From Takakia lepidozioides (lineage: Eukaryota; Plantae; Bryophyta), in NCBI GenBank assembly GCA_030704615.1, contig CM060733.1:55738001-55802000 (forward strand): a stretch of DNA of 64,000 nucleotides, given 5' to 3'. The translations under genes were made by a program, and so were the position numbers. A model generated the notes under the pieces. It was not told where the DNA came from. It did not search any database and saw only the letters and a program-made list of their open reading frames with translations. Numbering within the stretch: the stretch's first letter is position 1; the number at the start of each line of letters is the position of its first letter. Below, piece after piece: positions 21,850 to 60,993 of the stretch.

Positions 21850-21869
21850 AAGTGTCAGGGTCCTCACTG

Positions 21870-31500: not shown

Positions 31501-31518
31501 TCCCTAGTATGGTCGCCA
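31501..31518 (-). promoter_or_regulatory. PBS of element A (tRNA-Arg-like)
   Basis: Minus strand TGGCGACCATACTAGGGA, 2 nt downstream of the 5' LTR CA. It resembles the complement of plant tRNA-Arg 3' ends; the tRNA assignment is tentative. Confidence 0.8.
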
Positions 31519-31520
31519 AA

Positions 31521-32414: not shown

Positions 32415-32419
32415 ATGAT

Positions 32420-34405: not shown

Positions 34406-37400
34406 TCAGTATCTTGCATCATTACCTGAGATAGGTACTAGATTTGGAGACTATCTGGGCTGTTTAAGTGTGTTTGACCCAAAGACGTCTTATTCTATGG
34501 TAGCAGAGATGACTGGTTGGGGCTCCCTGATAACGGCTAAGTATGACACAGCTACGAGGGCCGGGCAGCGAGAGTCACGGGCAGAAAAGGCTAAGTGCAC
34601 GGCACTTAGCAAACGACGGAACAAGGGTACACTACCACGGGAGCAGTAGTGGGTAGTGTAGCAGCCGTGGGCCGTGAACCACGATATCACACGGCTACGG
34701 TAGCATAGGCTTTACTAATAGAAGAAGTAGTGAAGGGCCGTGGATCGTTGCAAGAACGGGTGTCATCATGAAGAAATACAAAATTGGCCGTCAAAGTACC
34801 TATCTGGCACGTTAACCGAAATTTATTATGGGCCCATTAATGCATACAGGAGAAGGGTAATGGAACCCTTTGCAAGTACAGAAAAGCGAAATCCTTGTCA
34901 CATAGGCTATCCTAATGGACAGTCCAGGGGGGAAAATCCATGGAAGGGAATTAAATTACAAAATCAATCACAGAGCCAACAGCCAATCATAAGCCAGAAT
35001 TATCTACAGAGGGTATTTTCCAAGAAGCAAGATCAAGAATTTAGAGGGATTCTGAGCGCAAGAGTCGGCGTCGTTCCAAGTAACGGGCGTCTCGACGGGA
35101 GAGACAATCAAAGCTATAGCTTTGAAGCTATGGCAGAAATAACAGACTACACACTCGCATTACTACTTACGCAGTGGCACAAGGACGGACGAACGAGAGT
35201 ACCTTTTCTCTAAATCGATACTTGCAAGCCCCACAGGCTTACAAGCACTTACCCATTTCATTCTGCGCCAACCATACTTTTATGCTTTGTGCCCTGCAGG
35301 CGTTTCTTCAGTTGTTACAACCAAAACCTTTTTGTTTGTCTAGAACGAAGAGAGTGAGAGGAATGGAGGATATATGAGGGTGACGAGCACCACAATCTTA
35401 CAGAAGCAAACGATTGCTACGCCACAGGCGGTGCAGCTATTGAAGGAGCTGTGATTGGAGGGATTGCTACGCAAGGACTGGTCCTTGCATCATCGGTGGT
35501 GCAGCTACTGAAGGAGCTGTGATTGGAGGGATTGCTACGCAAGGACTGGTCCTTGCATCATCGGCAGTTCATGATACAATTTCTTCAGAACTTTGAGCCT
35601 CGGACGGGAGTTACTCAGGTGTGGGGAGTAGATATAGAAATTACTCCCCAGTACCTGCAGCAATTGTTTGATTTGCCATCAGGACATGTGGATTTGGATG
35701 AGCACAGGGCAAGATTGCAGATAGGGAATTTGTTCCAAGAAGGGAGTTTCTTTAAAACTCAAGGTTTTTCTTGTACCAAAGCCAAGTACCCAGGGCTTAG
35801 GGAAGTTGGCCAAATCTTGAACGTTTTGTTTGCCATGAAACAGAACCAACAGTATTTGAGCAGGTCCTTCACAGAGGAGATCCTGAAAGCTTTGAGGGGA
35901 GAGGATGTTGCTTGGGCGGAGTTAATGTACAACGGATTGGTGGACAATATGAAAAGGTTACAGGGCACTGCTGCTAAGTCTCCGATCATTGTGTCCGGAC
36001 CAGTCATTGCCCAAATAATTCTTGATTCTTGCATACTTGATACTTGGGAACGTAAGGAGATGAGAGTGTTTGAGGCAGAAACCACTGCAATTGAAGAGCA
36101 AGACTCTTCACACAGTGAGGGTGGACTGGCAGCGCAACACCAGTCTAAGAGACAGAGGTGGGGTATGACTGTAGTGGCGGATCCACTGGCTTCACGGAAA
36201 CCGCACGATAATGTTTCCCAAGCTCTTGTGCAGGATGGGGCACAGCAGCACATAAAGCTGCTATTATTGGAAGCAGGGCCTTTAGAGAGGGAAGAGGAAG
36301 TCACTTCGATACCACAGCCACCACAACCAATTGACTCTGTTGTTCTAGAGGTTCCACAGTTAGTATATGCTGTGGCATCACCCCCAATTGCTCTGGAAGG
36401 AGAAAGGTTGGACACTACAGAGCAGGTCGTGGCCGAAATTGAGAAGGATGACCTTCTCTATGAAAATTCTGGCTTGGTAAGGGAAATAGTGATTCCAGAG
36501 GTGCAGCGGTTGTCCAGGGGAAACCCTGCTGTTGTTGTAATACCCACACCTCTGACGGAGGTACCACAGGTAGAATGTCAAGACACTGCAGCACCTGTAG
36601 CGGATGAGGTGGTTCAGGAAGAAAATCTGGTGGGGCAATGGCCTGAATGGTTCGTGAGTCATCACACTGTTGAGGATCAGGGGAGAAATAGCAGCAAGCT
36701 CACCATGATGACCCTCAGCAGGCCATGCTTATGAGTTCCATAAGCAGGACACTTAATTTGTTGGGCACTTATGTGAAATCCCATGTTCCATCTACCCAAT
36801 TGGCAGCTTTGAGGGAGGAACTCAGGAAGGAGTTTGAGGCTCGACTTGCCCCTGAGTGTGCAAACAAGGTCGATGATGAGGTCAATCTCAAGTTACAGCA
36901 AGAGTTAGAGGATACAAAAGCTGCTTTGCAGTTGGCCAAGGAATATTTAATTGAAGCAGGCCTCGCGCAGGACCAGTTGCACGAAGCACATAAACAACAG
37001 TTATACCAAATGCAAGTGAAGCATGAGGGCAAGTTGCAAGAAGTGAATGCACTACATACAGAGTTGCAGGCAGTACATGAGAGGATGACCATACAATGTG
37101 CTACACTCACCACTACTCTTGAGCAAACTGCATTAGAAGTTAACAGACAAGGGGAGAGATGTATGAAGGCAGAGGCAAAGACACTCGAGCAGGCGAAACT
37201 CATTGTTGATATGAAGAATACAATCTGTCGCAATGAGAATACTTTCAAGCAATACAGACAAATTGAAGCTGACCAAGAGAGGTACATCCTGGAGTTGCAA
37301 CAAACGGTCATGGTAAATAGAAATGAACTCTCTGTGGCTAACAAGGCTTGGAAGGAAGCCAATAATATGGCTGCTGCCTATGCAAGTTTGGTTGAACCTC

Positions 37401-38258
37401 ATGCAAAGCGAATGGAGGCTTTAAAGCAGCAGTTAGATGTGTACAGGCTCACAGAGGAGCAGACTAACAGGGGTGTCACACGCAACTTGGTGGATAACCA
37501 CCTTATGCGGGTCTGGTTAGCACAAGGGCCGGTGGAAGGCAAAGCACCACGGAAGCTCACCCAGGGCGAGATGAATGAGCTCAGACTGCAGGTGCAGAAC
37601 ATTGCCACAACTACTATATAGATAATGTCTTTAGTAGGATAGCGGAGCTACAAGAGGATGTAGAAGGCCTGCAGACTCAGGTAGATGACCTGACTTCAAA
37701 TATTGACAAGAGAGTCTTTATACATGAGGAGCAGCTGATGGCTACTTATTTACAAGCCATAACTCTAATCTTTCAATCTTCTTCGCAAGGAAAGGTCAGA
37801 CGGAGGGCACGATCTTGGAGCACAGAGATGACGATTACACAGAAGAGGAGATGATGACTTGATGGAGGTTTATTTCATGTAGAGTTGTAGTGATACTGTA
37901 GGACGGATTAGAGTCACCTTGACATTGGCCTAGTACCTGATAAATCGTAATCTGATACTTATTCGATACAAGCACATTGTGTAGAGAGACATGAGTGAAG
38001 CTGTGAAATGAATGCATGATTAATTGGAATTAAGTAGAAGTAGATACTGAAGCAATCTGATGCTTCAATATCAGATAAGGTGAATTGATAACATGAAGGA
38101 AAGAAGGAATACAAATGGGAAGCACAACCATGATTCACTAGCTGTAGGTCATGACTGATTGTACTGAGCGGGCTGAGTGCTTAGAGATATCCAACTCTTC
38201 TATCTTGGAGTTTCCACCTCGGATAGCGAAGGGATGGGTGAGTAAAAGCCGTTCGACA
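34406..38258 (+). mobile_element. Truncated, more diverged family-A copy in opposite orientation (inter-ORF region, extra ORF 35130-37790, deleted into the 3' LTR end)
   Basis: Peptides homologous to 5825-9570. The LTR terminus ...GGGTGAGTAAAAGCCGTTCGACA ends at 38258 (reverse complement of the 4247 end). The left boundary is approximate. Confidence 0.85.
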
Positions 38259-40150
38259 ACATCTGGTACAATTCCAGCTCTGACGATGTCGCCATGCACT
38301 TCTTCGCCTTTTTCCAGGGCTGCCAGGCTTGCACACGCACTGCAAACGCACACAAACGTGATGTGGTCGGGCTTCACCCCGTCGCACATCATTTGCTCAT
38401 AGGTCTCCAAAGCCTCCATCCCATGTCCTGCTATGCATACCCTACAGGCATCGCAAGTCCACGACACCACATCTCGTTCAGCCATAGTGTCAAACACTCC
38501 CTTTGCATCCTCGATGCACCCACATTTTGCAAACATGTCCACCAGGGTCTTGTTCAGAATGAACATCTGGTACAATTCCAGCTCTGAAGATGTCGCCATG
38601 CACCTCTTTCCCTTTTTCCGGAGCTGCTAGGGCAGTATTCAGATTGACATTTGGTACAATTCTAGCTTTGATGATATCCCCATGCACCTCTTTGCCCTTC
38701 TGACTACCAGGCTTGCACAAGCATTGCAAATGCACACAAAAAATGTGGCTTCCCCCCTCATTTGCTCATAGGTCTCCAAAGCCTCCCACGTCCCTGCTAT
38801 GCATACCCTGCAAGCATCGCACTCCACGACACCACATCTCGTTCAGCCATAGTGTCGAACACTCCCTTTGCATCCTAGATGCACCCACATTTTGCAAACA
38901 TGTCCACCAGGGTATTGTTCATAATGACATCTGGTACAATTCCAGCTCTGAAGATGTCGCCATGGACCTCTTTCCCCTTTTCCAGAGCTGCCAGCACAGT
39001 GTCCAGATTGACATTTGGTACAATTCCAGCTTTGACGATATCCCCATGCACCTCTTTGCCCTTCTCTAGGGCTGCCAGGCTTGCACGACAACACATCTTG
39101 TTCAGCCATAGTGTTGAACACTCCCTTTGCATCCTAGATGCACCCACATTTTGCAAACATGTCCACCAGGGTATTGTTCAGAATGACATCTGGTACAATT
39201 CCAGCTCTGAAGATGTCGCCATGCACCTCTTTCCCCTTTTCTAGAGCTGCCAGGGCAGTGTTTAGAATGACGTTTGGTACAATTCCAGCTTTGATGATAT
39301 CCCCTCTTTGCCCTTCTCTAGGGCTGCCAGGCTTGCACAAGCATTGCAAATGCACACAAACATGATGTGCTTCCCCCATCATTTGCTCATAGGTCTCCAA
39401 AGCCTCCCTCCCACGTCCCTGCTGTGCATACCCTGCAAGCATCGCACTCCACGACACCACATTTCGTTCAGCCATAGTGTCGAACTCTCCCTTTGCATCC
39501 TAGATGCACCCACATTTTGCAAACATGTCCACCAGGGTATTGTTCAGAATGACATCTGGTACAATTCCAGCTCTGAAGATGTCGCCATGGACCTCTTTCC
39601 CCTTTTCCAGAGCTGCCAGGGCAGTGTTTAGAATGACATTTAGTACTTTCCAGCTTTGACGATATCTCCATACACCTCTTTGCCCTTCTCTAGGGCTTCC
39701 AGGCTTGCACAACAGCACATCTTGTTCAGCCATAGTGTTGAACACTCCCTTTGCATCCTAGATGCACCCACATTTTGCAAACATGTCCACCAGGGTATTG
39801 CTCAAAATGAAATTTGGTACAATTCCAGCTCTGAAGATGTCGCCATGGACCTCTTTCCCCTTTTCCAGAGCTGTCAACCTCAATGCAGCTGTGCCATGCC
39901 TCCTTTCTGACACCTTTGTCCTTCATCATTGCTCTCGCCTCTGTGGGATCACCCCACCTGCCAGCTGCAGCCCCACACTTGGCATACATATCAATGAGAG
40001 TATTCTCCAGATTCAAATATGACTCTGTTCCAACATCAGTTGTAGCATGGACCTCTTTGCCATTTTCCAGGGCTGCCAGGCTCGCATGCATTGAGAACGC
40101 AAATGAACATGACTTTGAACATCGGCAATACCCCTTGCTCAATCATTTGC
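38259..40150 (-). pseudogene. Scrambled, tandemly amplified PLS-class PPR gene fragments including an E-domain piece
   Basis: Repeated ...LEKGKEVHGDI.RAGIVPDVILNNTLVDMFAKCGCI.DAKGVFDTMAERDVVSW.AMLAGYAQQG...EALETYEQM. E-motif AAGRWGD...ARAMMKDKGVRKEAWHSCIEV at ~39875-39970. Shared stops and frameshifts. Confidence 0.9.
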
Positions 40151-41119: not shown

Positions 41120-41168
41120 TAGGCTACCACCATGCTGCCCACTATGGCAGTTACTAGTCCACAAAATA

Positions 41169-41490
41169 GATAAAGAAGAAGAATACAAGCACAAGCTCAT
41201 GCGAGCTCACAAAGCTGAAGCATAAACTCATGCATATATAACCTCACCACTCAAATACAAGTCAAGCCAAGTGCACCCCACGCCATGGGGAATCCACACT
41301 ACGGCGCCATAGCTAGACGCGGTGAGGCTCAACTTGAGAAAGATGAGCCTCCCGCGTTTGCCGTGAAGATAACCACTCCAGGGCCTAAATCTGCCTTGAC
41401 CCTTGGATTGACACTTGGATCCCAAATGTCAATATGTAAAAGTTAGTTATTTCCTAGCTAGTTTCACACTAGTGGTAAAATAACTTGACA
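41169..41490 (-). repeat. Element D repeat A2
   Basis: GATAAAGAAGAAG...AATAACTTGACA, a direct repeat of 60669-60993. Confidence 0.93.
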
Positions 41491-41928
41491 GCTGTCGTGC
41501 GCATACATATCGCTACACAACTACATCGCTGTCCAAAACCACACAACACATGTGCACACCACACACTAGTATACCACTAGTCCACCACTAGTCCAACCCC
41601 TATGCTGCCAGTAGTCAGTCACTAGGCTACCACCATGCTGCCCACTATGGCAGTCACTAGTCCACACAATCGCCCCCCTAGCTGGTTCTTAGGTCTCTCT
41701 AAGTCCAGGTAGCCACAAGATGTGATAGTGACCATAGCCTCACTAAGTCCTCCACCACTATCCCTACTACACTCAAACTCGATAGATCAAGAGGCCGGGT
41801 GCAAGAGTTGCCCCAACGTTAGTCGTTGTCTTACAACCTGTGAACTTGAGCCTGGGATCTTGTGTATTGACTCCTATGAGCTTGGCCTCCCATGTCTTGT
41901 TAGCTACCTCTAGTCATGTCCACTGCCA

Positions 41929-42085
41929 CTATCCCAAGCAGTGTGGACACAACCAATCTCCATCAAGAACCTTCTCAATAGGTGGTGTCAAGCATCCCAT
42001 GTGCCAACCTCTTGGGCATCGATCACACACCAGCATGGTGGCTGCCCCTTTGGCAGACCCACAAAACATGCACCTCAAACCTGCA
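41929..42085 (-). CDS. PHD finger at the integrase C-terminus (element D)
   Basis: CMFCGSAKGAATMLVCDRCPRGWHMGCLTPPIEKVLDGDWLCPHC is a C4-H-C3 PHD pattern, followed by the stop. Confidence 0.93.
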
Positions 42086-45000
42086 GGTACCACTGCCAAG
42101 TTTGGGTCAACACTGCCATCGACATTGGGAAGGTGACATGGCGCACAATTACGCACATGGTCTTTCCAAGTCATGCCATCCCGACCCTCCAAGATCAGGA
42201 CTCCTGAGGGCAACACCTCTCAATCCCTCAGAATAACACGCCCTGCAGTGACATCCAGGGTAGGAGTAGTCTGCTGCAAATAAACATAGTCACCAGGGCT
42301 AAGCCACTGAACCCCAGGACGATATCCTCCATCACGTACAGTAGCATACCTCAACGTATCACGGTGCTGTGCAATGGCAAGGTTCTCAAAAGCCATGGGC
42401 ATGACTTTCTTGAATAACTCTGCACGCTGACCATATGCACGTACCCACATGTCCGGATCGTCAAGGTTAAGGACTTGAGCAGTGTCCCTACAAATGGCTG
42501 CAGGCAAATCCGGCTCTCGGCCAAAAAGAAGGAAATGTGGTGAGAAGGAGGCAAGTGATGCTTGCTTGCTAAACCTGTAGCCCATGGCTAACCAAGGTAC
42601 TTGAAGATCCCAATCTCCTAGGTGTCCCTTCTGCAAGCCATACTTGCGCAAACCCCTCTTCACCGTCTGAACAACTCTCTCTGCCAAGCCATCGGCCTCG
42701 GGATGATCCCGAAAAGTGGTGCGGTGGTTTATCAAAGCTTTATCATACAAAGCCTGAAACTCCCCCAAGAACTCTCTCCCTTGGTCCTTGAGTACCTTAG
42801 CTGGAGCACCGAATTGGCTAAGCACACAATCCAAGAATGCATATGTAGCCCCCTCACTAGCCTTGTCAGGCAATGGAACCAACTCAATCCACTTGGAGAA
42901 GTGCTCCACCATCACCAACACATATCTGTGGTGGTGCATAGTCAGTGGCAACGGTCTTGCGAAGTCAAGACTCCACCTGTAGCCCAATCCCATGATTGGT
43001 AAATGATGCAACTGTGGTGTAGGGGCGTTGAATGAAGCACGCACCCTGTCACACACCATGCACCTAGCCACGAACTGTTGTACCTCAGTATGCATACCAC
43101 GCCACCAAGTGATCCCCCAGAAGTCCCCGCTCTTCGCTTTATCTACCTACAAGCTGTTCTAACCGCCTTGCTAACTAACCGTCACCCCTGAAGTAACATA
43201 TTCCCTCTACAGATGTCGTTCCCAGTCCATGTTAACCGTTCCCCCTGTACTGTGACAACTGTGCAAAACTGCGTTGGGCTGTGTGAAGCTGTGATGGGCT
43301 GTGATTGGCTGTGACTGGCTGTGACGGACTGTGACAACTGTGACGGGCAGTGACGGCTGTGCCGGGCTGTGACTGGCTATGTCAGCTGTGTCGGGCTATA
43401 TCGGGCTGTGTTGGTTGTGGCGGACTGTGATGGACTGTGACGACTGTAATGGGCTGTGACTGGCTGTGTCGGCTGTGTCGGGCTTTATCGGGCTGTGTTG
43501 GTTGTGGCGGCTGTGACTGGTTGTGTCTGGCTGTGACGGGCTGTGTCGGGCTGTGTAACCCCCCCCTAAAGCCTGCTGCTGTCACCCCTAAGGCTCCTGT
43601 TGGTCTCAGTCTGTGTAAAAATTAAGGGTACCCCACAGAACCTGTAAAAACGTTAAAGTCCCAAGCAGCCCTCTAACATTTACCCCTCCCCCTCTCAAAA
43701 AGCCGTGTCCTCACGGTTTACTGTTTAGGATTAACAAACCTTTGTGATCGAACCCCCTTCTGATGGTGCGAGTCTCGTGAAGGACTCCGTGTGCAAGCCC
43801 GAGGCCTGTCACTGGTTGACGGAGATGATTGAGCTGGAAATGTCTATCCCTCCTTTGGCTGATAACGAGGTAACCTCTCAGGCATAGGAGACCCCCGTCG
43901 TTTCTTCTCTCCCATCTGAATTGCATAGTCCTTTGCCATGTCAAAAGAGTCCGCTGAAGAAACAGTAGTATCAGAATCCTCGTCGCCCCTCAGGTGTTTT
44001 AACGGCCGAACTTTAAGTGGAATCCTCTGTGGCATACAATGTTGTCCAACCATATCTGGAAGTTTAAATTGCACAACTTGTTGCAAGCGCTTGCACGCAA
44101 AATTAGTGAACGTCCTGAACTCCTTATCTGTACAGGTAAGAGGTGTGCCAATGACTTGGGAACAGTGCAAGTATTTCCATGCCTCATGTCCCTTAAAGAA
44201 AATATCGTCAGGCCCGAATTTTTGTGTTGTCAAATTGTTCCAAGCCGAATGAAACCATGAACGAAGTTGGGAATCCTTCTGCATCATAAGTTTTGCATCA
44301 TATAGGTATATATGAGGTGGCACTGAAGGTAAGACCCAATGATCCCCACTGGAATAACTCAGAAATCGCGATTGCATCTTCTGCTGCTCAATGTGATAAC
44401 GTGCCAGAAAACAAGCAGCATAGTATAATCCACAGCCCATGACAATACTTGCTACCTCCTTGGTCTTGGTATAAATGTACCCATGTACAACTTGGAAGGC
44501 AATTAATTCCTTCAACATGGTACTTGCTTCAGACCAGTACCTCGCAAAGTGATGATCCTCAATGGGTCGATTGTTCGGAAGAACCTTAGTCCTAGTTGCC
44601 ACTGGCAGCCAAATGCGCATGATCTGGTAGTAATGTGCCAACGAGTGCGGAGGACTAAATTCTTTCCAAGCCAAATCCAACACAATAGGAATTAAGTTGA
44701 AGGGCATAATCATAGCCCGACTGTACTCTCGTGCAGCAGGAGTTTTAGGTGGGTTAAAAGCATCATCCCCCCATACCTCAGGCTGTGGTGTGGCTGTAGT
44801 AACAACAGGGTCAGCTACCTGCACAGTCACTTGTTGTGGTATTGGTAGCACTGGCCCTTCTACCACTGGCATCTCCTACACCCCAGTAAATTGTGAGTGC
44901 GTCGCACTCCAAAATGCCCCAACTCCTCATGGGCATGCCGCACTAACCGTGCATGCTGTGTGGGGTGAGGCACTATCCTCACCCAACCATCCTCCCATAC

Positions 45001-45914
45001 TCGGAGCAGGTGTGTCCCCTCCCACTTGAACCTCTTGGCTCGTTGTAGGATCCAATCCCTCTCCTTGGTAGTCACAATGGCTGCCGTGTCTCTAGTACGG
45101 AGGTAGTCCAACACAGCCGAATCCTCATGTATATCTCTGTTACCACCTGGCTCATCACTAGCCTCAGGGTCCTGAGACACTCTGTCTACAGTCATCCCTG
45201 TTGTAGGTCCAACCTGACCTCCCGATGCCAAGATACACAAAAAGGCAGATGCATGCCATCCCGACACCATCTCCTTGTCCGTCTCACCATGCCACCGAGC
45301 TCCAGTGTCATCCTGCTGGCTTGTGTATGGATTGCGACTCAATCCATCCGCATCCTGATTGACCAAACCCGGTCAATGCACAACCTGAAAGTCATATTCC
45401 TGGAGTATGAATGCCCACCGTGCAAGCTTCCCCGTAAGCTCCATCAACCACTTGAGTGGTTGGTGATCCGTGACAAGGGTGAAGAGATTGTCGTATAGAT
45501 AGCACCTGAAGTGTGTCACGGACCACACTGCAGCTAAGCATTCTCCCTCATATGAGCTGTACTTAGCCTCTGCAGCGTTGTTCGAGCGCCTAGCATAAGC
45601 CACTACGAACTCTCTTCCCTCATCATCCACCTGTGTGAGCACCGCTCCAAGCCCCAGCATGCTCCAATTCGTATGCAGCTGAAAGGGACGCCCCCTGATA
45701 GGTCGTCTCAGGATAGGCACCGAAGTCAACCTCACCTTGAGATCTTAAAAAGCTCGTTCCTGCTCATCTTCCCACTGCCAATCCTGGTCCACCTTGGTCA
45801 GCTTGGTTAGAGCCTTTGCAATGGCACTAAATCCCTTGACAAACCGTCTATAATAGTTTGCCAACACCATAAAAGCTCGAACTCGGCTCACATCCGTGGG
45901 GCGTGGAATTTGTG
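42086..45914 (-). pseudogene. Element D RT C-terminus, RNase H and integrase (interrupted by 43121-44880)
   Basis: IPRPTDVSRVRAF...YYRRFV. RH HTNWSMLGLGAVL...YEGECLAAVW...TDHQPL. INT HEELGHFG | WWRGM...CMVCDR, WSLDFA, KDQGREF, DGLAER. Confidence 0.92.
43121..44880 (-). mobile_element. Terminus-less fragment of family A (extra-ORF C-terminus, PPT, partial LTR) inside the D integrase
   Basis: ORF 43844-44872 is homologous to 6000-7000. LTR edge CTCTAACA at 43678 with an adjacent PPT. Flanked by CCCCAG at 43115-43120 and 44881-44886. Confidence 0.88.
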
Positions 45915-46586
45915 CAATGTGCCACAGACATAGCCCAAAGGAACTTACCAAGAGTAAATATCAGAAGTTACTAAGTTACCATGTTATTGAAAGTTATCAT
46001 GATTTACCATTATTTACCAAGTTACCGGGAGTTTATCAAATTACCAAGAATAACTTGAAAAACTGCTCAGGAAGCTTCCTTTGGAGGAAACTTCTCCATC
46101 AAGATACCTCCTTTGTTTAAGGAAACTTCTCCATCAAGAAACATTTGTTTAATCTTAGAAACTTCTCCAGCAATAAACCTCTATAGGGGAAGCTTCTTAG
46201 GGAAGCTTATTAGTAGCCAGTATATATAGGAGGCGAGACTGAACACTCTTCAGTCTCGCCAACACCAGTTCAAGCTACTCTTGTTTCCAGTTTCCAGTTT
46301 CCAGTACTCCAGTCCAGTACCCAGTACCCTAGCCCAGTTTCCAGTATCTGGTACTCTAATCCAGTTTCCAGCATTCCAATATTCAAGTCGTGTTCCAATA
46401 TCTTGTATCTTTGTTCATTGTTATAAATATCGCTTTGATTCCTATTTACTCATCGTGCATACGGCCACGCCGACCTTGACTTCTTGTCTAATCTTGTACC
46501 TCTAGTTTGATCTCTTGTTTATGTTCAGTCATGTTCTCGTCCTTGACAGTTTGACGAGACTAAAGTTTGTTCCTTAGTTAGTTAAG

Positions 46587-49500
46587 ATGGAAGGCACATT
46601 TGCGGAAATGGTCGCCACATTGCAGAGTCTTCAGCTCTAGATGCAAGAACTTCGTGCATCTACTGCCCAACTACAAGCTGATCAGTCTCAAGATCTTGGC
46701 AACGCTCTCAATAATTTGCAATAATAAATTTCAGAGTTGAAGGAGTCGAACAATGGATCTTCAACCTTACGAGTCCCTACTACAACAAATCCTACTGCAA
46801 CGGTTCTTCCAAATCTCCAACAGATTACAATGGAACCAAAGGTCAGCATTCCCGAGAAATTTGATGGAACGAGATCGAAGATTTCGAGGTTTTGTTCAAC
46901 AAGTACGATTGTCCCTACGACTACATCCACAACGCTACCCTGATGAAGATATTCAAGTGAGATTTGTGTGTACCCTTCTATCAGACACTGCCCTATCTTG
47001 GTTTGCACCGCTATTAGAGAAAAATTCGCATTTACTATACAATTTTGAAGCGTTCATGTCCGAGTTCACTGCAACGTTTGGAGAGAATGATAGAGAGAGA
47101 GAGTTGCAGAGACAAAGATGTGAAATCTTCGACAAGGAGCACGTCCAGCTTCCGTTTATGCTGCCGAATTTCGACAACTTGCGTGCGACCTCGACTGCAA
47201 TGAGAAGAGCCTCATTAGTCAGTTTTGCTGTGGCCTAAAAGAGGATGTAAAAGATTTGTTGCTGATAATGCCAAACGTGAGTACACTGAGCGAATTCATC
47301 ACCCAAGTCATTGCATGCGATAATCGTTTGTTCGAAAGACGTCAAGAGAAACGATCTGGATGGTCGACGACGCACCATGCCGCTGCTACTATGGCACCAA
47401 ATACAACGATCCATCAGACATCCGGTAATGATCATATGCAGATTGATGCTGTCCGATTCAAGCCATTGACGCGACGGCGCTCGAATAGATTTTGCCTTTA
47501 TTGCGGAGAAGATGATCACATAGCATTAAACTGCCCCAACAAGAGAAGATTTAAAACTCGGGGCACAACTCAAGTGTTCGATACGAGGAGGTCGGAAAAC
47601 AAAGATGTCCAGTCATAGTAGGGACCATGCGGCTGGACGCCCCAAATTCCTCACCAAAAAAATGTCTCTTTCTACCTCCAGACCCTGTATCTTGTTTCAC
47701 AGTTCCAGTAAAGATCAGAATGCAAAATCGAGATATCTCCGTAGAAGCACTTTTGGACTCGGGCGTTTCAGCGTGTTTTATTGACAAAAACTTTGCGAAG
47801 CAACACAATTTAACGCTCGTAAAAAAGAAATTTTCGGCTCCTGTTGAAGTCATCGATGGACGACCGTTAGCTTCAGGAAATATTGACCATGAAACTCGAC
47901 CCCTTGAAGTGAAGCTTAAAAATCAAGCATCACAGATTGTTTTCAACGTCATCAAGTCTCCAACGAATCTTGTGATCCTTGGACTTCCCTGGTTTGTACT
48001 TCATAATCCTGACATCGACTGGCGATCACGAAAAATTTCGGCAAGACAAAAATGCAAAAGTACCAAAGGTATTCAACCCTTGTTTCTTGGAGCTAGAGCC
48101 TTCATGAGAGCTACAAAGAAAGACGCGACATTTGCACTTTATGCGACTCCAATCAAAACCACAACAGACCAAGGTACTTCGACATTACCCACTCAATATC
48201 AAGATTTCAAGGATGTCTTCGAGAAGAAAAATGCAGATATGTTGCCAGAACATCGACCTTATGATTGTACAATTGAGTGCAAAAAGGAGCTCAACCACCA
48301 TTTGGCCCGATCTACAATTTATCTCAGACGGAGCTGGCTGCTTTACGCGAATACATTGATGAAAATTTGTCAAAGAATTTCATTCGACATTCGAAATCAC
48401 CCGCGGGAGCACCTATCTTATTTGTGAAGAATAAGGACGGATCGTTACGTGACTATCGTGGACTCAACAAAGTCACAACTAAAAATCGTTATCCGTTGCC
48501 GCTGATTTCTGGGCTTCTCGACCAACTGGGACGAGCGAAGATTTTCACCAAAATTGACTTGAGAGGAGCTTACAACCTTGTACGAATAAAAGAAAGAGAC
48601 GAATGGAAGACTGTTTTTTGCACAAGGTACGGACATTTTGAATACAGTGTTATGCCTTTCGGTCTTACAAATGCTCCAGCAATTTTTCAACACATGATGA
48701 ATGACATCTTTTGAGAATTTTTAGATGACTTTGTAGTCATCTATTTGGACGACATTTTGATATTTTCACAGAATGAAGAAGAACATGGTCGCCATGTACG
48801 CCTTGTCCTTGATAAATTGAGGGAAAAAGAACTATATGCCAAGTTAGAAAAATGTCTTTTCCACCAATCTGCAGTCGAATTTTTGGGCTACATTATTTCC
48901 GACAAAGGCGTCTTTATGGATCAGAAGAAAATACAAACCATCATCGAGTGGATTAAACCAACTTCGGTCCGAGATGTACAATGTTTTCTAGGATTTGCAA
49001 ATTTCTATAGAATCTTCATCAATGATTACTCCAAAATTGCTGCACCATTGACACGACTCACAGGGAAGGACAAATTTGTATGGAACGAGAAGGCTGACCA
49101 AGCATTTGAAAGGCTGAAGCAGACATTTACAACGGCTCCAATACTGGTACATGCAGACCCATCTAAACCATTCTTTTTGGAAGCAGATGCATCGGACTTT
49201 GCACTTGGCGCAGTACTCTTTCAATACGGTACAGATGGCCGACTTCATCCTGTTGGTTTTTACTCTCGCAAATTTTCCGCTGCGGAGATCAATTATGAAA
49301 TCCGTGACAAAGAACTTCTAGCGATTATTGATGCTTTTGAGGAGTGACGTCATCTATTGGAGGGAACTAAACATCAGGTCACAGTCTATACCGATCACAA
49401 AAACCTCGAGTATTTTATGAGTGCTCGTGTTTTGAATCGATGTCAAGCGAGATAGAGTATGTCACTAGCAAGGTTTGATTTTGTTATTACCTACCGTCCT

Positions 49501-51839
49501 GGACATCTTCAAGGAAAACCAGATGCTCTTTCTCGACGATCGTATCTTGTGCCAAAAGAAGGGGATGCAACTTTTGACCAACAGAAATCCATCATCTTGA
49601 AACCAACAAATCTCCAAGTGAATATGCTATCTATGTCCACCTATGACGATGTAGAGATCATAAAGGAGATTCAGAAAGCACTGAAGAGCGACCAATTTGC
49701 TACGACACTACAAAGTCAACTAAATTGACCTCGAGATAACCCACATGTTACAAACGACTTCGAATTCAAAGATGGTTTACTTTATTTCAAGGGACTTCTG
49801 TATGTACCTCCAGGACCTACACGACTTCGAATTCTTCAAACATGTCATGATTTTCCGGCTGCATGACATTTCGGCTTCAACAAAACAATGGAATTGATAT
49901 CCAGTGACTATTGGTGGCCGCAGATGTGGAAATTCGTGATTTTTTTTTATAAAATCTTGCGACACGTGTGCTAGAGCGAAGGGACCACGACATCGACCTT
50001 ACGGCCTCCTGCAACCATTACCCATTCCCAATGGTCCATGGTCGTCCGTGTTTATGGATTTTATTACAGACCTTCCAATTTCCAAGACCACCGATTCAAT
50101 CCTTGTTATTGTCGATCGTTTTACAAAGATGACACATTTCATTCCATGTAATAAGACGGTCACCGGCGAGGAAACTGCAAGACTCTTCCTCAATAATATC
50201 TACCGCATTCATGGACTCCCGAAGGACATCATATCTGATCGAGGACCACAGATCATATCAAATTTCTGGAGGGGATTATTTCACATATTGGATATTAAGA
50301 TCAATCTCTCTACAGCTAATCATCCACAAACTGATGGTCAAACCAAACGCGTAAACCAGATTTTGGAGCAGTATCTTCGTTGTACGATAAATTATCACCA
50401 AGATAATTAGACGGACCTTCTGTCATTAGCTGAGTTTGCCTATAACAACACTATATATTCTTTGACCAAGCAAACTCCATTTTTCTCCAATTATGGTCAT
50501 CATCCTCGAGCAAACCCTTTCCACATGAAGACTGTTGGAAGCCCTGTTGCAAAAAACTTGCTACTCAACTTGCTATGATTCACAAGGAGCTTACATTTCA
50601 CCTCGCAGAAGCTCAAAAACAATACAAGGAGTATGCATATCAACATCATCAACTCCAACCCCAGTTCAAGGTCGGAGAACGTGTGTGGCTTCTTCGACGG
50701 GATATAAAAACCTCGCGACCATCAAGGAAGTTGGATTATCAACGCCTGGGACCATTCAAAATCATTCGACAAATAAATCCGGTCAGTTTTCGGTTTGAAC
50801 TCCCACGAAGTATGCACATCTATCCAGTCTTTCATGTTTCATTATTTGAGTTGTATCATCCATCGAATATTCCAGGGAGAGTCTCCATACCACCTCTGTC
50901 GCACACCTCACTTCGGTAAACTCCCCTTCAAGTTATAGTTACTCGCTTTGATGCGCGCGCCTGACTCCCAACCCGGCCACTGGGCCAACTTGGAGCTTCG
51001 GCTGCTCACCGGGACATAACGGTCCCCCTTCGCTTCCCTCTGAAACCCTCCACCTAATTGGGACTAGGAGAATTCCCTTTGGTAGATGACAGTCCGGAAT
51101 AGCTCCCCACTCTTTGGTCGCTTTCCGGCTCGCTCGCTTACTCACTAGTTTTTGGTCACCAACGGGCTTGCACCGTTCTCGGGGTTACTACTCCCTATAT
51201 ATACTTCTGTAGCTGTCCGTGGGGGTTTCACAACCAGCCATGCCATTTTATGGCGAACCACCACGAAGACCCTCGATTCCCGGTGGTGAGTCGCGGTGAG
51301 TCTTGGCCCGCTCACCACGGCCCCTATGGACCGTGATGAGTCCCAAGACTCCCCACGACTCCCACCACGAGGTCTCCACCCCCGTGGTGAGTCCTATGCC
51401 ACCCCCACTAAGTCCCACTAAGCTACCACCCCTTGTGGAGCCACCCCCACCGCAACCCGGTGTGCGGGGCTCCACCTAGTGAGCGCCTCCGCCTCCTTGA
51501 GTGCCTTGGGCACTCAAGGGTGCTTCAGCCCCCGTACCTATCGCTGCTACTGCCCCCACCACAGGGGCAACCCCTCTTGTGTCCCGACCTCCCTGCTCTC
51601 AAGGCAAAGGGCCGCGACAACCTCCACCAATCAAAGTCAATCAGGAAATTGAGTATGAAGTCGATGAAGTCCTAGACTCTCACATCAAGTATAAACGTCT
51701 TGAGTATTCCGTACATTGGAAAGGCTATGATATCAGCGAACGAACGTGAGAACCTTCATCCAACCTCGCCAATGCATCTGACAAAGTCCAAGAGTTTCAT
51801 CAACGATATCCAGCTAAGCCCCGAGCTACACGTCAATAA
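46587..51839 (+). pseudogene. Element E gag-pol with chromodomain (stops, frameshifts, solo-LTR insertion)
   Basis: Gag PEKFDGTR...MQID...[78 protein letters not shown]. Chromodomain EYEVDEVLDS...YSVHWKGYDISERT*EP at ~51645-51830. Confidence 0.94.
50897..51619. mobile_element. Solo LTR of another family
   Basis: TGTCGC...GCGACA termini, 5-bp TSD ACCTC (50892-50896 and 51620-51624), internal TATATATA at ~51196. Confidence 0.92.
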
Positions 51840-53095
51840 GACGTCACAACGATGATGTCAGCCAAGTTAGCTTCAAAATTAAGACTCCACATTCAATGTA
51901 CCTGATACACACTAAGGAGAGAAGAGCACCACACATCAGTATATATAGCTACACTTCCAGCACTTCCAGCACTCTTGCATTTTGTATTGGCAGTATGGAG
52001 TCACAGGAACCAGATACATTGGAGTTGTTGCTTACCCAGCTACCAGATCAGTCGTTCCGACTCTCACGACCTTCAACATCACGCCGACGTTCTTGAGACG
52101 ATGGGTCATCAATGCAACGCGTACTTCCTCGTCTGGACCCCGTACGACGATAAGTGGAGCCTATTCGAAGTCTGATAATTTTGTTGGAGGTTGAGACTTC
52201 GGACCCAAAGGGCAACGAAATCATGTTTGAAGGCAGCTTCGAAAATCAGAACGCTCAAATCACTGCGTGGTCCCAAGTTCAAGGTGTTGGACACTATCGA
52301 TGGTGCAGGGACCTATAAATCATTTGACTCAAGAACAAAGAGCCGAATACTTGGCAAGTACCATTCGCCGGATTTTGGATTTTCTCCAACTCTAAGCAAG
52401 TCCAAGATTTTACCGCTCCTCGAGGGACTCGGCGTTAGAAGAGGGGGTGATGTCACAGACATAGCCCAAGGGAACTTACCAGGAGTTAATAAGTTACTAA
52501 GTTACCATGTTACCGAAAGTTATCATGATTTACCGTAATATACCATGATCTATCATGATTTACCATTACTTACCAAGTTACTGGGAGTTTATCAAATTAC
52601 CAAGAGTAACTTGGAAAACTGCTCAGGAAGCTTTCTTTGGAGGAAACTTCTCCATCAAGATACCTCCTTTGTTTAAGGAAGCTTCTCCATCAAGAAACAT
52701 TTGTTTAATCTTGGAAACTTTTCCAGCAAGAAACCTCCATAGGGGAAGCTTCTTAGGGAAGCTTCTTAGTAGCCAGTATATATAGGAGGCGAGACAGAAC
52801 ACTCTTCAGTCTCGCCAACACTAGTTCAAGCTACTCCAGTTTCTAGTACTCCAGTCCAGTTCCCAGTACCCTAGCCCAGTTTCCAGTATCTGGTACTCCA
52901 GTCTAGTTTCCAGCATTCCAATATTCAAGTCGTGTTCTAATATCTTGTACCAATGTTCATTGTTATAAATATCGCTTTGATTCCTATTTACTCATCCTGC
53001 ATACGGCCACGCCGACCTTGACTTCTTGCCTAGTCTTGTACCTCTAGTCTGATCTCTTGTTTGTGTTCAGTCATGTTCTCGTCCTTGACACAATG

Positions 53096-53900
53096 GCCTC
53101 TACCTTAGTCTGCTGTACCCCCAATCCTCCAGGATATATCATGTGACCCAGATACTCAATCTGGTTGTGGAAAAACTTGCACTTCCCCGGATGCAACTTC
53201 AATCCGTGCACTCTCAAGCGCTTCAATACCATCTGAAGGTATCTCTCATGCTCCTCCACCGTAGCACTAAAGATGATGATGTTATCTATGTAGCACCGAA
53301 CAAAGTCCACCCCTACTAGAATCGTATTCATGACTCTCTGAAACTCTACAGGAGCATTCTTAAGCCCAAATGGTAAGAACTGCCACTGATATAGGCAATC
53401 CTTGCCATGCTCATTGATCCCCCAGAATGCCGTCTTCTGCTTGTGTGCCTCCTTGATCGGCAACTGGTGATATCTGGATCGTAAATCCAAAGTGCTAAAG
53501 ACCTTCGCATGCCCGATGGCATCAAAGATCTCATCTGGTGTTGGCATGGCATACTTATTGGACTTGGTCTGACGATTTACAGGCCGGTAATCACCGCACA
53601 TACATCTCTCCGTCCAATTGCCATAGACATCCTTCTTGGCTGGCATCACTGTGGCTGAAGCATCCTCTCCACTAGAGAGCTCCACCAAACTTGTCTCCTA
53701 GAGATCTTGAGTCCTCATCTGAATCAAAGACCTCTCCATGTCACTGTATCTATAGGGTCTCCGAAAGATTGGCGTGTCAGTGGCCAACTCAATACGGATC
53801 TCTCGACCCTTCAGTGCTCCCAAGTCCTTCAAACTGAAGGCAAAGCAATTCCTGTAAGCCCTCAGGAACCGCCGTATACGTCGTCTCTCTCCTCCGGTGA
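53096..53900 (-). pseudogene. Element D reverse transcriptase
   Basis: MCGDYRPVN, LDLRSRYHQ, LPFGLKNAP, YIDN (decayed YIDD), KLHPGKC, YLGH. Confidence 0.93.
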
Positions 53901-54289
53901 CAATGGGTCGAATGTCAGGCTTCCAATTATCCTCCGTAACTGTAACCTTAAGTCCAGTGGGCTTAGAGGTAGAGGACGCGTCCAGTGGTTGTTATGTTGC
54001 AACCTCTTGAGCAGTACTCCCTACCTGCTCAGTCAATGACAAGGCCTCATCTTGCCCCATCATCTCATCCTCGAGGACTTCCTCAACCCGAGAAAAATCC
54101 CCAACCTCATCCATCACTGCCACCTTGGCTGCCAACTCCCTCTGAACCTCGAGCACCTCCCACGTGTGCCATGGATGCCTGCACCCCGTGGTCCTCACAT
54201 GCTCGCCCCCACTCACTGCCTGTACCGTCTCGGTAGGCAGAGAGACCAGCGAGGAAAGTGTACTTCGCACTCTGCGTTGCTCAGCCATA

Positions 54290-55230
54290 GCCAAGCTGAT
54301 AATCCAGGTCAAGCAATTGAGATCCATTGCTTGCCCCAACACCTGACGACGTGATGCCTCAGAAAAATAAGACACAACCGTGGTCCCAGTGGAAAAACCC
54401 ATAGCCCGCTCTCGCTCGTCGGCATTAGGCTCCACTAATTGATGCAACTAAGCATCCCACAGGAGGCCAGGTCCACTATCCCGGAAAGCATGCGATCCTG
54501 GGAAGCTGATCAGTGTAGATAGTGCTGCTCGTGGTTGACCAACCTTGTTGACCACTGCCAAAGGCGAACGGTCATCGTGTCTCACACGCTGAGACTGCCT
54601 CCTTGTGTCTAGAATGCTATCCATTGTGAGGTGTGCTGGTCGTTGCACCCCATCAAATGCACGCTTGAGCAGTGCGGGTGACATCAAGTTAATCCACCAT
54701 AACCGTGGACAATGAGCCCGTGACCCCACTGCAGCTGCATCCAGCAACACTGCTGACCCAAACCACGACCGGACTTGATGCACACTGGCCATCACCCTGG
54801 CCCGAGAATCGCCCATCAGTGGCACATTCTCCAAGATGTATGCTGGAGATACAGCTTGATGAAGCTGCAAGTGACGCATACCCGCACCATCTCCCAAAAC
54901 AGACCCGACCTCGAGTCTCGCAATCCATTGCCATGCCCGGCTGATGAATGCCCTTGGCACGGCCAACCTGCCACTACCAAATCAATGGAGCCAACCCGCT
55001 CCAAATCCTGTGCCCCCAGCAACGACATGTCTGCTGATATCCACGAACTGCAGACACCGGCAACAACTCAGGGTACTGCTGCACCAACTAAGCAACATGA
55101 CGAAGTGAAACGCGTCGTGCAATCTCATCCCTCTCTACATACAGGTAACGCTGAACTAGTACACCTGCCTGTAACACAACAGCCAATCCGGTGCTGATCC
55201 CGCCAAACAAGTCCAGAAGACAAATGCCTT
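54290..55230 (-). pseudogene. C5 DNA cytosine methyltransferase domain (DNMT3/DRM-like) within D pol
   Basis: Motif I LDLFGGISTG, II YVERD, IV AGWPCQGHS, RSGLFWEM, VI ILENV, VIII RAHCPRLWWIN, IX ERERAMGF, X RRQVLGQAMD. Contains stops and a frameshift. Confidence 0.93.
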
Positions 55231-55599: not shown

Positions 55600-58065
55600 C
55601 CGGCCCTCCGCTGACTGCCATCCAGGCCCATAGGAAGCTGACTCCTCCTAAAAATTCTAGGGTGAAGCCCATGGGGTACAACATTGCCCCACCAACCAGG
55701 ACATCATACGAGACCGCGTCTGTCACAATGGCCTTGGCTCGCATCACAAAGCCATATGTAGGATGATTCGGCCGTAGTCTGATAGCCAACTCACGCCGTG
55801 TCATGCCGAGTCTGCTCCGATCCTCCCAAAGATGTCTGTGTCTGGAAAAGACAAGGCTTCCATATCTGCCTCCGTGAGGCCCAAGCTTGCAATAACAGCT
55901 CTGCCCAGCATCAACGGCTGAGCTCCTGAGTCCAACAAGACCCTCAGTAGCCGGTACCTCTTGCCTGCCGGTCCACTCAAACAGAAAATACCCTCCTGGT
56001 TGTCTAACATAACAACCCCAGTTGTCACCATGGCGCGCTCAATGGTTGGCCTAGCTGGCAGCTCCATCAACCTGGCAGCTGCAGCTTGCCATGGCGCCAC
56101 TGTGGCAGTCTTCACACTCAAATCCGAGGATCCCTCCGGCACTACACCTCCCGCTATCTCCGCAGATGAAAATAACCCGATCCCCACTCTCACAGAGTGT
56201 AGCTGCCAGTCTGAACACCTCAGCTGGTCTTACCCTTGGCGTCGCAATCATGGTAGCCGAGAACAATGGAGCCTGGCACACAGATGTGGCCGCCCCCAGC
56301 AGCACCGTAGCCTTGGCAACACTAGGTAGTGGTGCTACCCGTGTAGCTCTCCCCAATGGCATAGTAACCTCCGCCTCGGTAACAGTCGGGCGAGAACCAG
56401 GTGCCATGGATGGCGTCGATACTGTCTCCGTCAATGTGAATAACTGAGGAAGCCTGGCCTGACGGCTTGCTTCCCCATGCTGTGGATCCAACTCCACCTC
56501 TGCACCTCGTGGCTCAGAAACTCGTGCTTCTCCTCGCGTCACTGCCGCCGCCGACTCCACTTGCACTAGTGGTAGTGCTGCCCCGCACATGAATCCCATG
56601 CCTCCCATATCTCCTCCCTCAGGAGCTGGAGGTGGACCATCCGGCCTTGGAGCCGGTACCACCTGAGCTGTAGCCATGGCAGCGAGCCTCTGCTCTAGCT
56701 GCTGAAGCCAGTTGGCCATGCCTTGGTCAATACCCTGACCTCCGCGTCCTTGGCCATGTTGAGCTTGCCCTTGGCCTGCACCTCGTGCCTGGCCACCTCG
56801 TCCTCTCTGGGCTGCTCCACCTCGCCCCCGGCCACCATTGTTCCTTTGGACTGGCTTGGGCGCAACTCAGGATGCAAACCATAACACTGGGCCTCTCCAT
56901 GCCCGTGCTTGCCACAATGCCCACACTGCAACTGTGCAGGCTATGCATGTGTCGGCCCTTTGCCTCCCTCCGGGCAATCCTTCTTGACATGGGGTCCTCC
57001 ACATGTCCAACACACCACCTCCACCCATTGTTGGCTTGCAAATGAAGGGAGAGACCCTTGCATCTGAGGTCCTCTCTGTCCTTCCCTGAGCTTCACCTGA
57101 GCCCCCTTGTTGCCTTGAGCACATTGAGGTAGTGGTTGGCTAGGAGCACCACTACCCCGTGGTGTCTCCTTAGCAAATCCCACCATGACCACTCGTTCCT
57201 CCACCATGTTGAGCTCTATCCGCTTTGCCAGCAAAAACACATTTGCTAAGGTGGGTTGGGCCGCTTGTAGGAGGGTTGCATCCCGCACCCTTCTCTTCAG
57301 CTCATTGTCCAATATCCCATACCAGAATTGGACTGCCTGAGCTTCCGTAACCCCTTGGGTTTCATTTATCAAGCGCCTCATGCGAGTGAAAGCCTCCCTC
57401 AAGCTCTCAGTCGGCTTCCGTTGAAACTCTTGCAAGCTCCGCAACTTCTCTGTCCTCACCCCTTGGTAGTTCCCTCTCAACTCTTCGAAGAATTCCACAA
57501 CAGGGTTGAAGGCATACACGGGTACTGGTGCTGGTGCGGCAGTGGCTTGGGTGGACGTTGTAGCTATGATACCACTAGTCCCACTAGTCCCCCTAGTCCC
57601 ACTGCTGCTTGTTGAAGCTGCCGGTGCAGCTACAGGTATAGCCACTGCCCTCGTGGCTCTAGTGCCCCTAGTGATGGAGACATAGTCGGGTGACCAGTAC
57701 ATCCTCCACTCCTCGATCTCAACCTCATGCCCCCGCCTGAACTCATGGTAGTCATCCATAGGCGGCCCCTCAAGGTGCTGAAATAGCCTCTTCCATGCCA
57801 TGAAAGGCGTAAATAGTTGTGGATTGCGCATTTGCTGCAAATCACACCAACTATCAAACTCTTGGATAAAATCATCCAACTCAATGGTGCCCACCGCCCC
57901 AGAGTACCTTCGTGGCCCCTTGGTAGCTCCATACATCTCCTCCATTGTGTCCCACAACAATGGCAAGGAAACAACTTGCACCGCAGGTGTGAGTCCTCCT
58001 GATTCACAATCCGAATCAAAACCTTCCATAGAATACATAGGAGGTGAAGGTAGCCTAAACCGCAT
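55600..58065 (-). pseudogene. Element D gag and protease
   Basis: Gag ORF 56941-58065 (FQRKPTESLREAF; knuckles CWTCGGPHVKKDC and CGHCGKHGHGEAQC). Protease RVLLDSGAQP at ~55915-55945 and YDVLVG. Confidence 0.88.
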
Positions 58066-58879
58066 ACCTCGTCTCGTATACCACTAGTATCGCTAGTGCT
58101 CAAACCGACACTCTCCCCAGCAACTAGTGGCACCTCCGTGTTGACAAACTGACACTCAACCGGTCATGAATATGTCCCTAACCCCCTCTCCACAAGGTAA
58201 CCGGGTAGAGAACCTGTTGCGGCTTATGGTTTGGAATACTAGGTTTCTAACATAGCCTACACCTGCACCTGCATCCACCGCAAGCACTCCTATGGTTGGT
58301 TGGTCATCACCTCCAACCTCACCACAGGAGAAACAATGATGGTCTGACTGGTCATCACCCAGCCTCACCATCGACAGCATGCTCTAGGACTGGCCGGTGA
58401 TCAAATCCGGACCAATCACCTATAAAAACAAGCGCCCGCACAAAACTAACATGACGCACAGTCAAGCATGCAGGTATGGAGGGGATCCAAACACAAGAAA
58501 TCAGAACAACAACTGCCCCACACCAAAAACAACGTCCCCACGGTGTTGCTCCTGCAAGGACATCCTAGCCCAAACCCGGACTGACTCTTGCCTCCACCTA
58601 CGGAAAGGTCTTGGCCTAATGAGAGAGTGGAAAACTACGAGGAAGAGAAACTAAAGCAATGCCTAACCCCAACATGCCCTCATCCCAATACTCTTCCTCT
58701 CCTCTCTTCCCTCACTTGCATGACCATGGGAATATCATGAAGATACTCCTCAAACTGCCCTCCACGAGCTTCAAAATTCGGCCTTCAAGACCACATGCCA
58801 GTCCTTAGGCAGTCCACCAGTGCCTCCACGAGTCAGCACAGGCCGTCCACAGGTCAACACGGGCCACCACAGACTAGCA

Positions 58880-59165
58880 CAAGCCCACACAGATCACTGG
58901 TCACAGCCGTCACAGCCCCACACAGGCCACAGCCCCACAGCCCATCATAGCCCCACAGGCCACAGATCACAGTCTGTCACAGCCCGTCACAGTCCCAAAG
59001 GCTACACGTCACAGTCCGTCACAGCCCCAAAGGCCACAAGGCACAGCCTATCACAACCAGTCACAGTCCGTCACAGCCCCAAAGGCCACAGATCACAGCC
59101 TGTCACAGCCCGTCACAGCCCCAAAGGCCACAGGGCACAGCCTGTCACAGCCCGTCTCAGCCCCA
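58880..59165. repeat. CACAGCC/GTCACAG tandem array in the D 5' leader
   Basis: Many copies of TCACAGCC(C) and CCCCAAAGGCCACA. Confidence 0.9.
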
Positions 59166-60668: not shown

Positions 60669-60993
60669 GATAAAGAAGAAGAATACAAGCACACGGTCAT
60701 GCGAGCTCACAAAGCTGAAGCATAAACTCATGCATAGATAACCTCATCACTCAAATACAAGTCAAGCCAAGTGCACCCCACGCCATGGGAATCCACACTA
60801 CGGCGCCATAGCTAGACGCGATGAGGCTCAACTCGAGAAAGATGAGCCTCCCGCGCTTGCCGTGAAGATAACCACTCCATGGCCTAAATCTGCCTTGACC
60901 CCTGGATTGACACTTGGGCCAATCCCAAATGTCAATATGTAAAAGCTAGCTATTTTCTAACTAGTTCCACACTAGTGGTGAAATAACTTGACA
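60669..60993 (-). repeat. Element D repeat A1 (5' end, begins TGTCAAG on the minus strand)
   Basis: Direct repeat of 41169-41490; non-homologous sequence begins at 60994 (TCCTC). Confidence 0.93.

Follow-up and report, generated by a model that had tools for sequence, protein, structure and literature searches.

What does a retrotransposon gain from carrying a cytosine methyltransferase of its own? The question has stood since 2018, and until now the sole Gypsy example was algal, with an enzyme that failed in yeast. The window analysed here, a stretch of 64,000 nucleotides from Takakia lepidozioides, contains a Gypsy element with such an enzyme in a land plant. It raises the questions of what kind of enzyme this is, how it would be produced, and which DNA it would act on.

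The element in the window

The window contains a decayed Ty3/Gypsy element on the minus strand, from 60993 to about 41120. Its parts, and the insertions within it, are the following.

60669..60993, minus strand: 5' terminal repeat A1, starting with TGTCA; 94% identical to A2 over 326 nt
56860..58083, minus strand: gag with zinc knuckles, broken; PF03732 at E 4e-4, below the cut-off
55640..56000 (approximate limits), minus strand: aspartic protease, frameshifted; LLDSGA at about 55938-55921; PF13650 only at E 0.011
54290..55230, minus strand: predicted DNMT3-type C5 cytosine methyltransferase domain, from its motifs, PF00145, and identity to Marchantia proteins
about 55210-55199, minus strand: motif LFGG
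within the domain, minus strand: acidic motif II, YVERD
about 54968-54954, minus strand: motif IV, GWPCQ, with the Cys at 54959-54957
within the domain, minus strand: RSGLF, a DNMT3-like feature
about 54831, minus strand: motif ENV
about 54705, minus strand: motif RLWWIN
about 54411, minus strand: motif ERAMGF
about 54336, minus strand: motif LGQAMD
53986..53994, minus strand: conserved in-frame stop, TAA CAA CCA (TAG CAA CCA in the family)
53091..53991, minus strand: reverse transcriptase, in frame after the stop, with one premature stop; PF00078 at E 6.6e-29
45920..53090, plus strand: unrelated chromodomain Gypsy nested in the end of the reverse transcriptase; two LTRs, 5-bp target duplication CAATG
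45373..45919, minus strand: end of the reverse transcriptase and RNase H; PF17917 at E 1.2e-31
44860..45372, minus strand: start of the integrase zinc-binding domain; PF17921 weak
43147..44860, no strand assigned: second inserted repeat, splitting the integrase; kin at 4872-7000 and about 32000-32400 of the window
42220..43146, minus strand: integrase core; PF00665 at E 6.6e-11
41932..42075, minus strand: PHD finger at the integrase C-terminus; PF00628 at E 2.9e-11
41493..41690, minus strand: polypurine tract and repeat B1 (B1 about 41670-41493), ending with GACA
41169..41490, minus strand: repeat A2; the B1/A2 junction is the palindrome GACA-GC-TGTC
41120..41167, minus strand: remnant of repeat B2, 48 nt

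The order Gag-PR-RT-RH-IN and a DDE-type integrase, as in Ty3/Gypsy elements, are both present, and the gag region is 57% identical to the N-terminus of the Marchantia protein P0005. Two complete direct LTRs are not found in this element; its layout is A-internal-B-A-B. Assignment to the tyrosine-recombinase elements of the DIRS/PAT type was ruled out by the presence of a protease and an rve integrase. The target duplication cannot be read in this copy because the 3' end of B2 has been lost.

The window copy retains a recognizable methyltransferase domain. Motifs I, II, IV, VI, VIII, IX, and X of the C5 methyltransferases occur in canonical order on the minus strand, in three frames, and each of the motifs named in the preliminary description was located there. 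That description had also placed the domain between protease and reverse transcriptase, and the protease motif upstream and the PF00078 match downstream bear this out. The PF00145 profile matches the middle piece of the domain at E 5.8e-10, above the curated cut-off, and the other two pieces have no Pfam match when searched alone. The domain is 71% identical to Marchantia proteins over 199 amino acids (E 2.5e-85), far beyond chance, and when aligned to P0005 its three pieces are 65-72% identical. Premature stops lie at 55090-55088 and 54450-54448, as described before; the alignment to P0005 gives two frameshifts, at about 55035 and 54879, rather than the one counted previously. The first arginine of motif VIII has become cysteine. 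The copy is dead, and the enzyme cannot be made from it.

Other repeats and gene fragments lie around and within the element. The nested chromodomain Gypsy, which may be Tcn1-like, is complete and 7.2 kb long, with LTRs 88-95% alike and several stops, and its integrase-chromodomain end is itself interrupted at about 50900-51500. The flanks contain PPR fragments and an ORF with an IQ motif, for which a search gave no match; tandem duplicates of a PPR fragment, broken by stops and with 259/366-nt spacing, are found at 38138-40142 on the minus strand. A repeated element is present in several copies and both orientations (4200-10200, 31500-38300, and 43147-44880); its long ORFs match no Pfam family, and it has tandem repeats rich in TGTGAC. 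Repeats similar to the latter are seen at 58900-59165, in the DNMT element's leader. Duplications of 95-100% identity, with spacings of about 3.7 kb and 8.7 kb, occupy 12600-19400 and 20800-30300 in and around other Gypsy elements, and they are either recent or an artefact of assembly. A DUF4218 transposase-like ORF at 32808-34649 on the plus strand is presumably of CACTA type.

The family and its enzyme

The methyltransferase domain is conserved across a family of elements and is not confined to the window copy. A query of 199 amino acids found 59 proteins among 1955 candidates, the top ones from Marchantia polymorpha (70-72% identity), Calypogeia fissa, and Sphagnum. Of 258 candidates in a metagenome scan, 209 held up, and most long loci among the best 80 of these share the domain order of the window element. 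A profile matches 537 clusters (50% identity) at E<=1e-30; among the best 150 of the 537, most long matches carry retroelement domains. Relatives with the domain come from Marchantia, Calypogeia, Sphagnum, Closterium, Klebsormidium, and the chlorophyte Scenedesmus; the species-named ones among 30 relative proteins checked belong to Scenedesmus, Closterium, Klebsormidium nitens, and Calypogeia. Identity to the window domain is 73% for Marchantia, 38% for Closterium, and 35% for Klebsormidium, with 67-73% for the nearer elements. Some Marchantia relatives have a long open Gag-PR-DNMT frame that is unannotated (for example Mp_4g09160 and Mp_8g17980). In Takakia the family is very abundant: one sequencing run has 50,152 contigs of the DNMT element, which together cover all 30 bins, although this does not amount to an exact count. 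Scans of viral contigs gave either no match or three loci at 26-30% identity without retroelement domains. Whole eukaryotic retroelements (L084, L085, and L086) were also seen in three GTDB metagenome-assembled bacterial genomes; their interpretation as bacterial genes was rejected, and they are likely contaminant plant or algal contigs.

The domain occurs in two architectures. One is the PR-DNMT-RT order of the window element, and the other is RT-RH-DNMT-IN-PHD, which includes Scenedesmus. The second forms one group both in a tree of 221 DNMT domains (support 0.77) and in the RT tree (63 of 63, support 0.96). The domain has either shifted position inside the polyprotein or been captured twice. 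This group is large, with the proteins P0072, P0078, P0081, and P0173 and the loci L085 and L086 among its members; P0078 and P0086, of the RT-RH-DNMT-IN type, have a G-patch domain between DNMT and integrase. The window domain and the copies from Marchantia, Calypogeia, and the Sphagnum type form a clade (support 1.0). The trees were made with FastTree, and the DNMT tree contains element domains only and is midpoint-rooted, without outgroup or clade test; it is not used to name a donor or a sequence of events. Distances between DNMT domains correlate with those between RT domains (Mantel rho 0.60, 76 proteins), and kinship alone explains part of this. The pattern fits long descent inside the element.

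Comparisons with known enzymes indicate a DNMT3-type domain, as the preliminary description had supposed. All 29 PDB sequence matches of one intact relative are DNMT3A, DNMT3B, or DNMT3C, and a profile search of the PDB ranks DNMT3A (1e-24) above DRM2 (1e-11), followed by DNMT2 and HhaI and other bacterial enzymes. The predicted fold of the relative L026 (pLDDT 89.8) matches DNMT3A with an E value of 4e-21 and TM scores of 0.73/0.83, at 21% identity in the structural alignment. A search of the ESM Atlas returned the PF00145 label only. By sequence and predicted structure, the element domain thus has motifs I-X unrearranged and is closest to DNMT3. Among 167 architecture-labelled domains (the 54 unlabelled of the 221 are left out of these counts), the catalytic cysteine is retained in 166 and the glutamate of motif VI in all 167, and the arginine of motif VIII is near-invariant across chlorophyte and streptophyte elements. 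Motif IV is GWECQ rather than GWPCQ in 76 of the 167, with the cysteine kept (for example L060:10007-10951), and motif X is without its usual asparagine in most of the labelled domains.

The DNMT domain is under purifying selection. Between lineages dN/dS is below 1, the value that had been proposed as a check: compared with Sphagnum-type copies, the window gives 0.09-0.10, at a dS above 2 that approaches saturation, and L026 gives 0.19-0.20, these figures coming from the estimable pairs, as 3 of 15 DNMT pairs were saturated. Young Sphagnum-type pairs have dN/dS of 0.40-0.75 in the DNMT domain versus 0.20-0.39 in the RT, showing that the domain is the less constrained of the two. The CpG observed/expected ratio of the DNMT element is 0.40-0.63. 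The nested element has 0.90, the flanking DNA 0.38, and two further Gypsy elements 0.25-0.35, and a low ratio therefore does not set the DNMT element apart. Both the weaker constraint in young copies and this lack of specificity weigh against the reading favored below.

This kind of element, Gypsy-DNMT3, is known. The available text of de Mendoza et al. (2018, PMC5890265) describes KnitGypsy-Dnmt3 of Klebsormidium nitens: its Pol contains a DNMT3 domain, its repeats are DIRS-like, and Ka/Ks is <0.2. It has in common with the window family its Gypsy domains, a DNMT3 in the polyprotein, split repeats of DIRS-like form, and purifying selection. The Klebsormidium protein GAQ93235 (P0262), with zinc knuckle, protease, and DNMT, falls in the same DNMT set as the window family and shares the PR-DNMT order, in agreement with the earlier comparison of the window copy to Klebsormidium elements. 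The hosts differ, an alga in one case and a land plant with very abundant copies in the other, and the domains are 35% identical. The same text puts the DNMT in the Pol frame and, as far as available, has no mention of a readthrough stop, PHD finger, or circle-type ends. SymbioDIRS-Dnmt3 and SymbioLINE-Dnmt (PMC5890265, available text) and the EpiLTRs (bioRxiv 10.64898/2026.05.21.726589, available text) also represent C5 methyltransferases borne by retroelements, but they belong to other retroelement classes or have a DNMT4-like domain, and they are independent captures. Host DNMT3 such as PpDNMT3b shares the unrearranged DNMT3-type catalytic domain but carries a C-terminal DUF3444 (PMC6453930, in the part available), while the element domain is intronless and lies within the Gag polyprotein.

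Several features of the window family were not found in print. In the portions of the sources at hand, 'streptophytes (Gypsy-DNMT3)' are called previously described (bioRxiv 10.64898/2026.05.21.726589), Gypsy-DNMT elements are cited as known in streptophytes (PMC12344493), and a PHD finger is reported in a Chlamydomonas Gypsy (bioRxiv 2022.06.16.496473). A land-plant Gypsy-DNMT3 is absent from the available text of PMC6317226, PMC6453930, PMC10952607, PMC11982613, PMC7466625, and bioRxiv 363937, 2021.11.30.470311, and 2022.06.16.496473. The non-chromovirus clades Phygy and Selgy of REXdb (PMC6317226) are Gypsy elements of non-seed plants too; compared by description only, the text available on them does not mention a PHD or methyltransferase domain. 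This literature, whose coverage is incomplete, describes neither the family in a land plant nor its high copy number there, and it contains nothing on the architecture seen in the chlorophyte, on the conserved stop, or on Gypsy ends of the circle type.

The stop codon and the element ends

A conserved stop codon separates the methyltransferase from the reverse transcriptase. The window copy reads TAA CAA CCA at this site; 99% of the run depth has TAG, with no other letter listed for the next six bases. A stop is present at the homologous site in 44 of 45 copies (34 TAG, 10 TAA), followed directly by CAACC(A/C) in 39 of the 44. These copies are related and include some duplicates, so lineages rather than copies were counted. 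There are four, set apart by near-saturated silent sites or about 50% protein identity: the window family and L026 have TAG-CAA-CCA, L084 has TAG-CAA-TCA, and the Sphagnum type has TAG-CAA-CCC. The full UAG-CAA-YYA motif is found in three of the four, and the Sphagnum type has five of the six bases, missing the last. The stop of L026, TAG CAA CCA, precedes 766 open codons; that of L084, whose group has a domain with only 50% identity to that of the window, is the single stop between frames of 1162 and 1047 codons. The reading frame is maintained across the stop in all four lineages. Among 734 premature stops in the same loci, used as a control, none is followed by CARYYA and 8 by CARYY. No conserved ATG follows the stop, the first methionine being at codon 84, 47, 2, or 116 in the four lineages. 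RNA structure 3' of the stop gives z values of -0.4 to -3.2 against mononucleotide shuffles and is inconsistent.

Tobamoviruses have UAG-CAR-YYA as their type I readthrough signal (PMC3542737, available text). The two systems are alike in the stop with its six-base context and in the in-frame polymerase downstream; in the window family the stop lies between an accessory enzyme and a retrotransposon RT, and readthrough is deduced from sequence. The frame and context make it quite probable that a few ribosomes read through the stop to make RT-RNaseH-integrase-PHD.

The distribution of the stop suggests that the DNMT of the window clade belongs to the Gag-side product and is not a plain Pol domain. 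In this 62-leaf clade (support 0.97), only two of 58 proteins, Marchantia gene models with the look of splicing, have RT after DNMT, and 13 of the 58 break off before this could be judged; in open-frame relatives from Marchantia, Calypogeia, and Sphagnum the frame closes 93-99 residues past GQAMD. Outside the clade, RT follows DNMT in 10 of 19 proteins with the same order. DNMT and RT do not share one open frame in the window clade. In a sister subfamily (L054, L060, L067, and L068) and in several full-length proteins, no stop interrupts the passage from DNMT to RT, which means that the enzyme need not be made in bulk. The earlier picture of PR-DNMT-RT on the pol strand holds for strand, order, and frame, but in the window clade the conserved in-frame stop parts DNMT from RT. 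Because Gag-PR-DNMT would end at this stop, the methyltransferase should be as abundant as Gag. P0262 and P0088, known as protein only, both stop 8 residues past the domain with a near-identical tail, and a break behind DNMT may therefore exist in Klebsormidium too.

The ends of the element are also unusual. Complete relatives start with TGTC and end with GACA. Target duplications of 4 bp are exact in 7 of the 11 relatives with both ends, have one mismatch in 2, and are lacking in 2; together with the termini, they are what an integrase would be expected to leave. At the B1/A2 junction these motifs form GACA-NN-TGTC, and the spacer measures 2 nt in all 12 junctions. The A2/B2 join is variable, with filler in L035 and L039, a flush join in L060, L068, L069, and L075, and small gains or losses of bases in the window, L049, and L077. 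Since a polypurine tract precedes B1, ordinary reverse transcription would yield [BA]-internal-[BA], whose ends are without the TGTC/GACA motifs. The junctions favor, with some reserve, closure of the cDNA into a two-LTR circle by joining of its ends, after which integrase would cut the circle at the internal GACA-NN-TGTC palindrome. The layout A-internal-B-A-B could also come from linear cDNA through strand transfers of an unusual kind. The textbook route is integration of linear cDNA, and integration of a circle, if true, departs from it. L022, L024, and L063 have a single B end and no second A on the 3' side, with the 4-bp duplication kept (one mismatch in L024); A2 was possibly lost from them by recombination between B repeats.

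The proposed role of the enzyme

The preferred reading, with a probability of about 0.55, is that the enzyme is made at the level of Gag, packaged, and used to methylate the element's own new cDNA before integration. The first frame would produce Gag, protease, and the DNMT3-type enzyme together, and RT-integrase would appear only upon readthrough of the stop. Each particle would contain many copies of the enzyme, freed by the protease, and these would methylate the new double-stranded cDNA. The cDNA ends would join into a circle, integrase would open the internal palindrome to give A-internal-B-A-B, and the PHD finger would guide the choice of target chromatin. The protease probably releases the enzyme within the particle, and the domain is probably active in catalysis. 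The element cDNA as main substrate is slightly better than an even guess, and guidance by the PHD finger stands at about even chances. A new copy that arrives methylated would resemble host chromatin or damp its own expression.

Other readings differ in the substrate or in the activity of the enzyme. The main substrate of the released enzyme could be the chromatin of the host, either where the element inserts or at loci in trans, since the Gag-level amounts of the enzyme exceed the need of one cDNA and the integrase bears a PHD finger; de Mendoza et al. also raise effects on the insertion site and host methylome (PMC5890265, available text). This is unlikely, however, as fusion to Gag would keep the enzyme inside the particle and the same text reports a methylome ordinary for a plant in K. 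nitens. Somewhat less likely still is a DNA- or RNA-binding or structural module with weak or absent methyl transfer. The KnitGypsy-Dnmt3 domain gave no DNA methylation in yeast, a result its authors call inconclusive (PMC5890265, available text), and the change of proline to glutamate ahead of the catalytic cysteine in 76 of 167 domains and the mostly missing asparagine of motif X point the same way. Against such a module, the cysteine and the motif VI and VIII residues are near-invariant, and the related DNMT3 domains of dinoflagellate DIRS elements methylate CG in yeast (PMC5890265, available text).

Two further alternatives concern expression and origin. RT-integrase could arise by splicing, reinitiation, or a separate transcript, with the role of the enzyme the same. 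An ATG lies two codons past the stop in the Sphagnum-type lineage, and predicted introns join DNMT to RT in the Marchantia/Sphagnum gene models P0001, P0011, and P0042. The ATG is absent in the other three lineages, however, the joins differ among the gene models, and the frame over the stop and its CAA-YY context are conserved, which makes this route improbable. The preliminary description had also considered that a single copy might have picked up the domain from a host DNMT gene, recently and neutrally. None of the observations that it named as refuting its reading was made in this analysis. The window copy is indeed broken and host DNMT3 is absent from the tree of element domains, but 537 clusters match, with retroelement domains in most long matches of the best 150, DNMT and RT distances correlate, and identity is 67-73% to the domains of other elements versus 21% for a relative against DNMT3A; such a capture is scarcely credible. 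Methylation of the element's own cDNA by a packaged enzyme remains the preferred reading. The whole picture, an ancient green-plant Gypsy lineage with an active DNMT3 at Gag level, methylated cDNA, a circle, and PHD-guided integration at an att site, is tentative and, taken together, doubtful.

The window copy is dead, and its value lies in the family and in the testability of the question in Marchantia, which has both relatives of the element and methylation mutants. The position of the stop predicts where the enzyme is made and how much of it. For annotation, element genes can inflate DNMT counts in bryophytes and algae, and the split ends would lead LTR finders to miss or misplace the family. 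If the proposed cycle is true, new insertions would already be methylated on arrival without help from the host, and bryophyte genomes would contain, in this element, a de novo methylase able to move.
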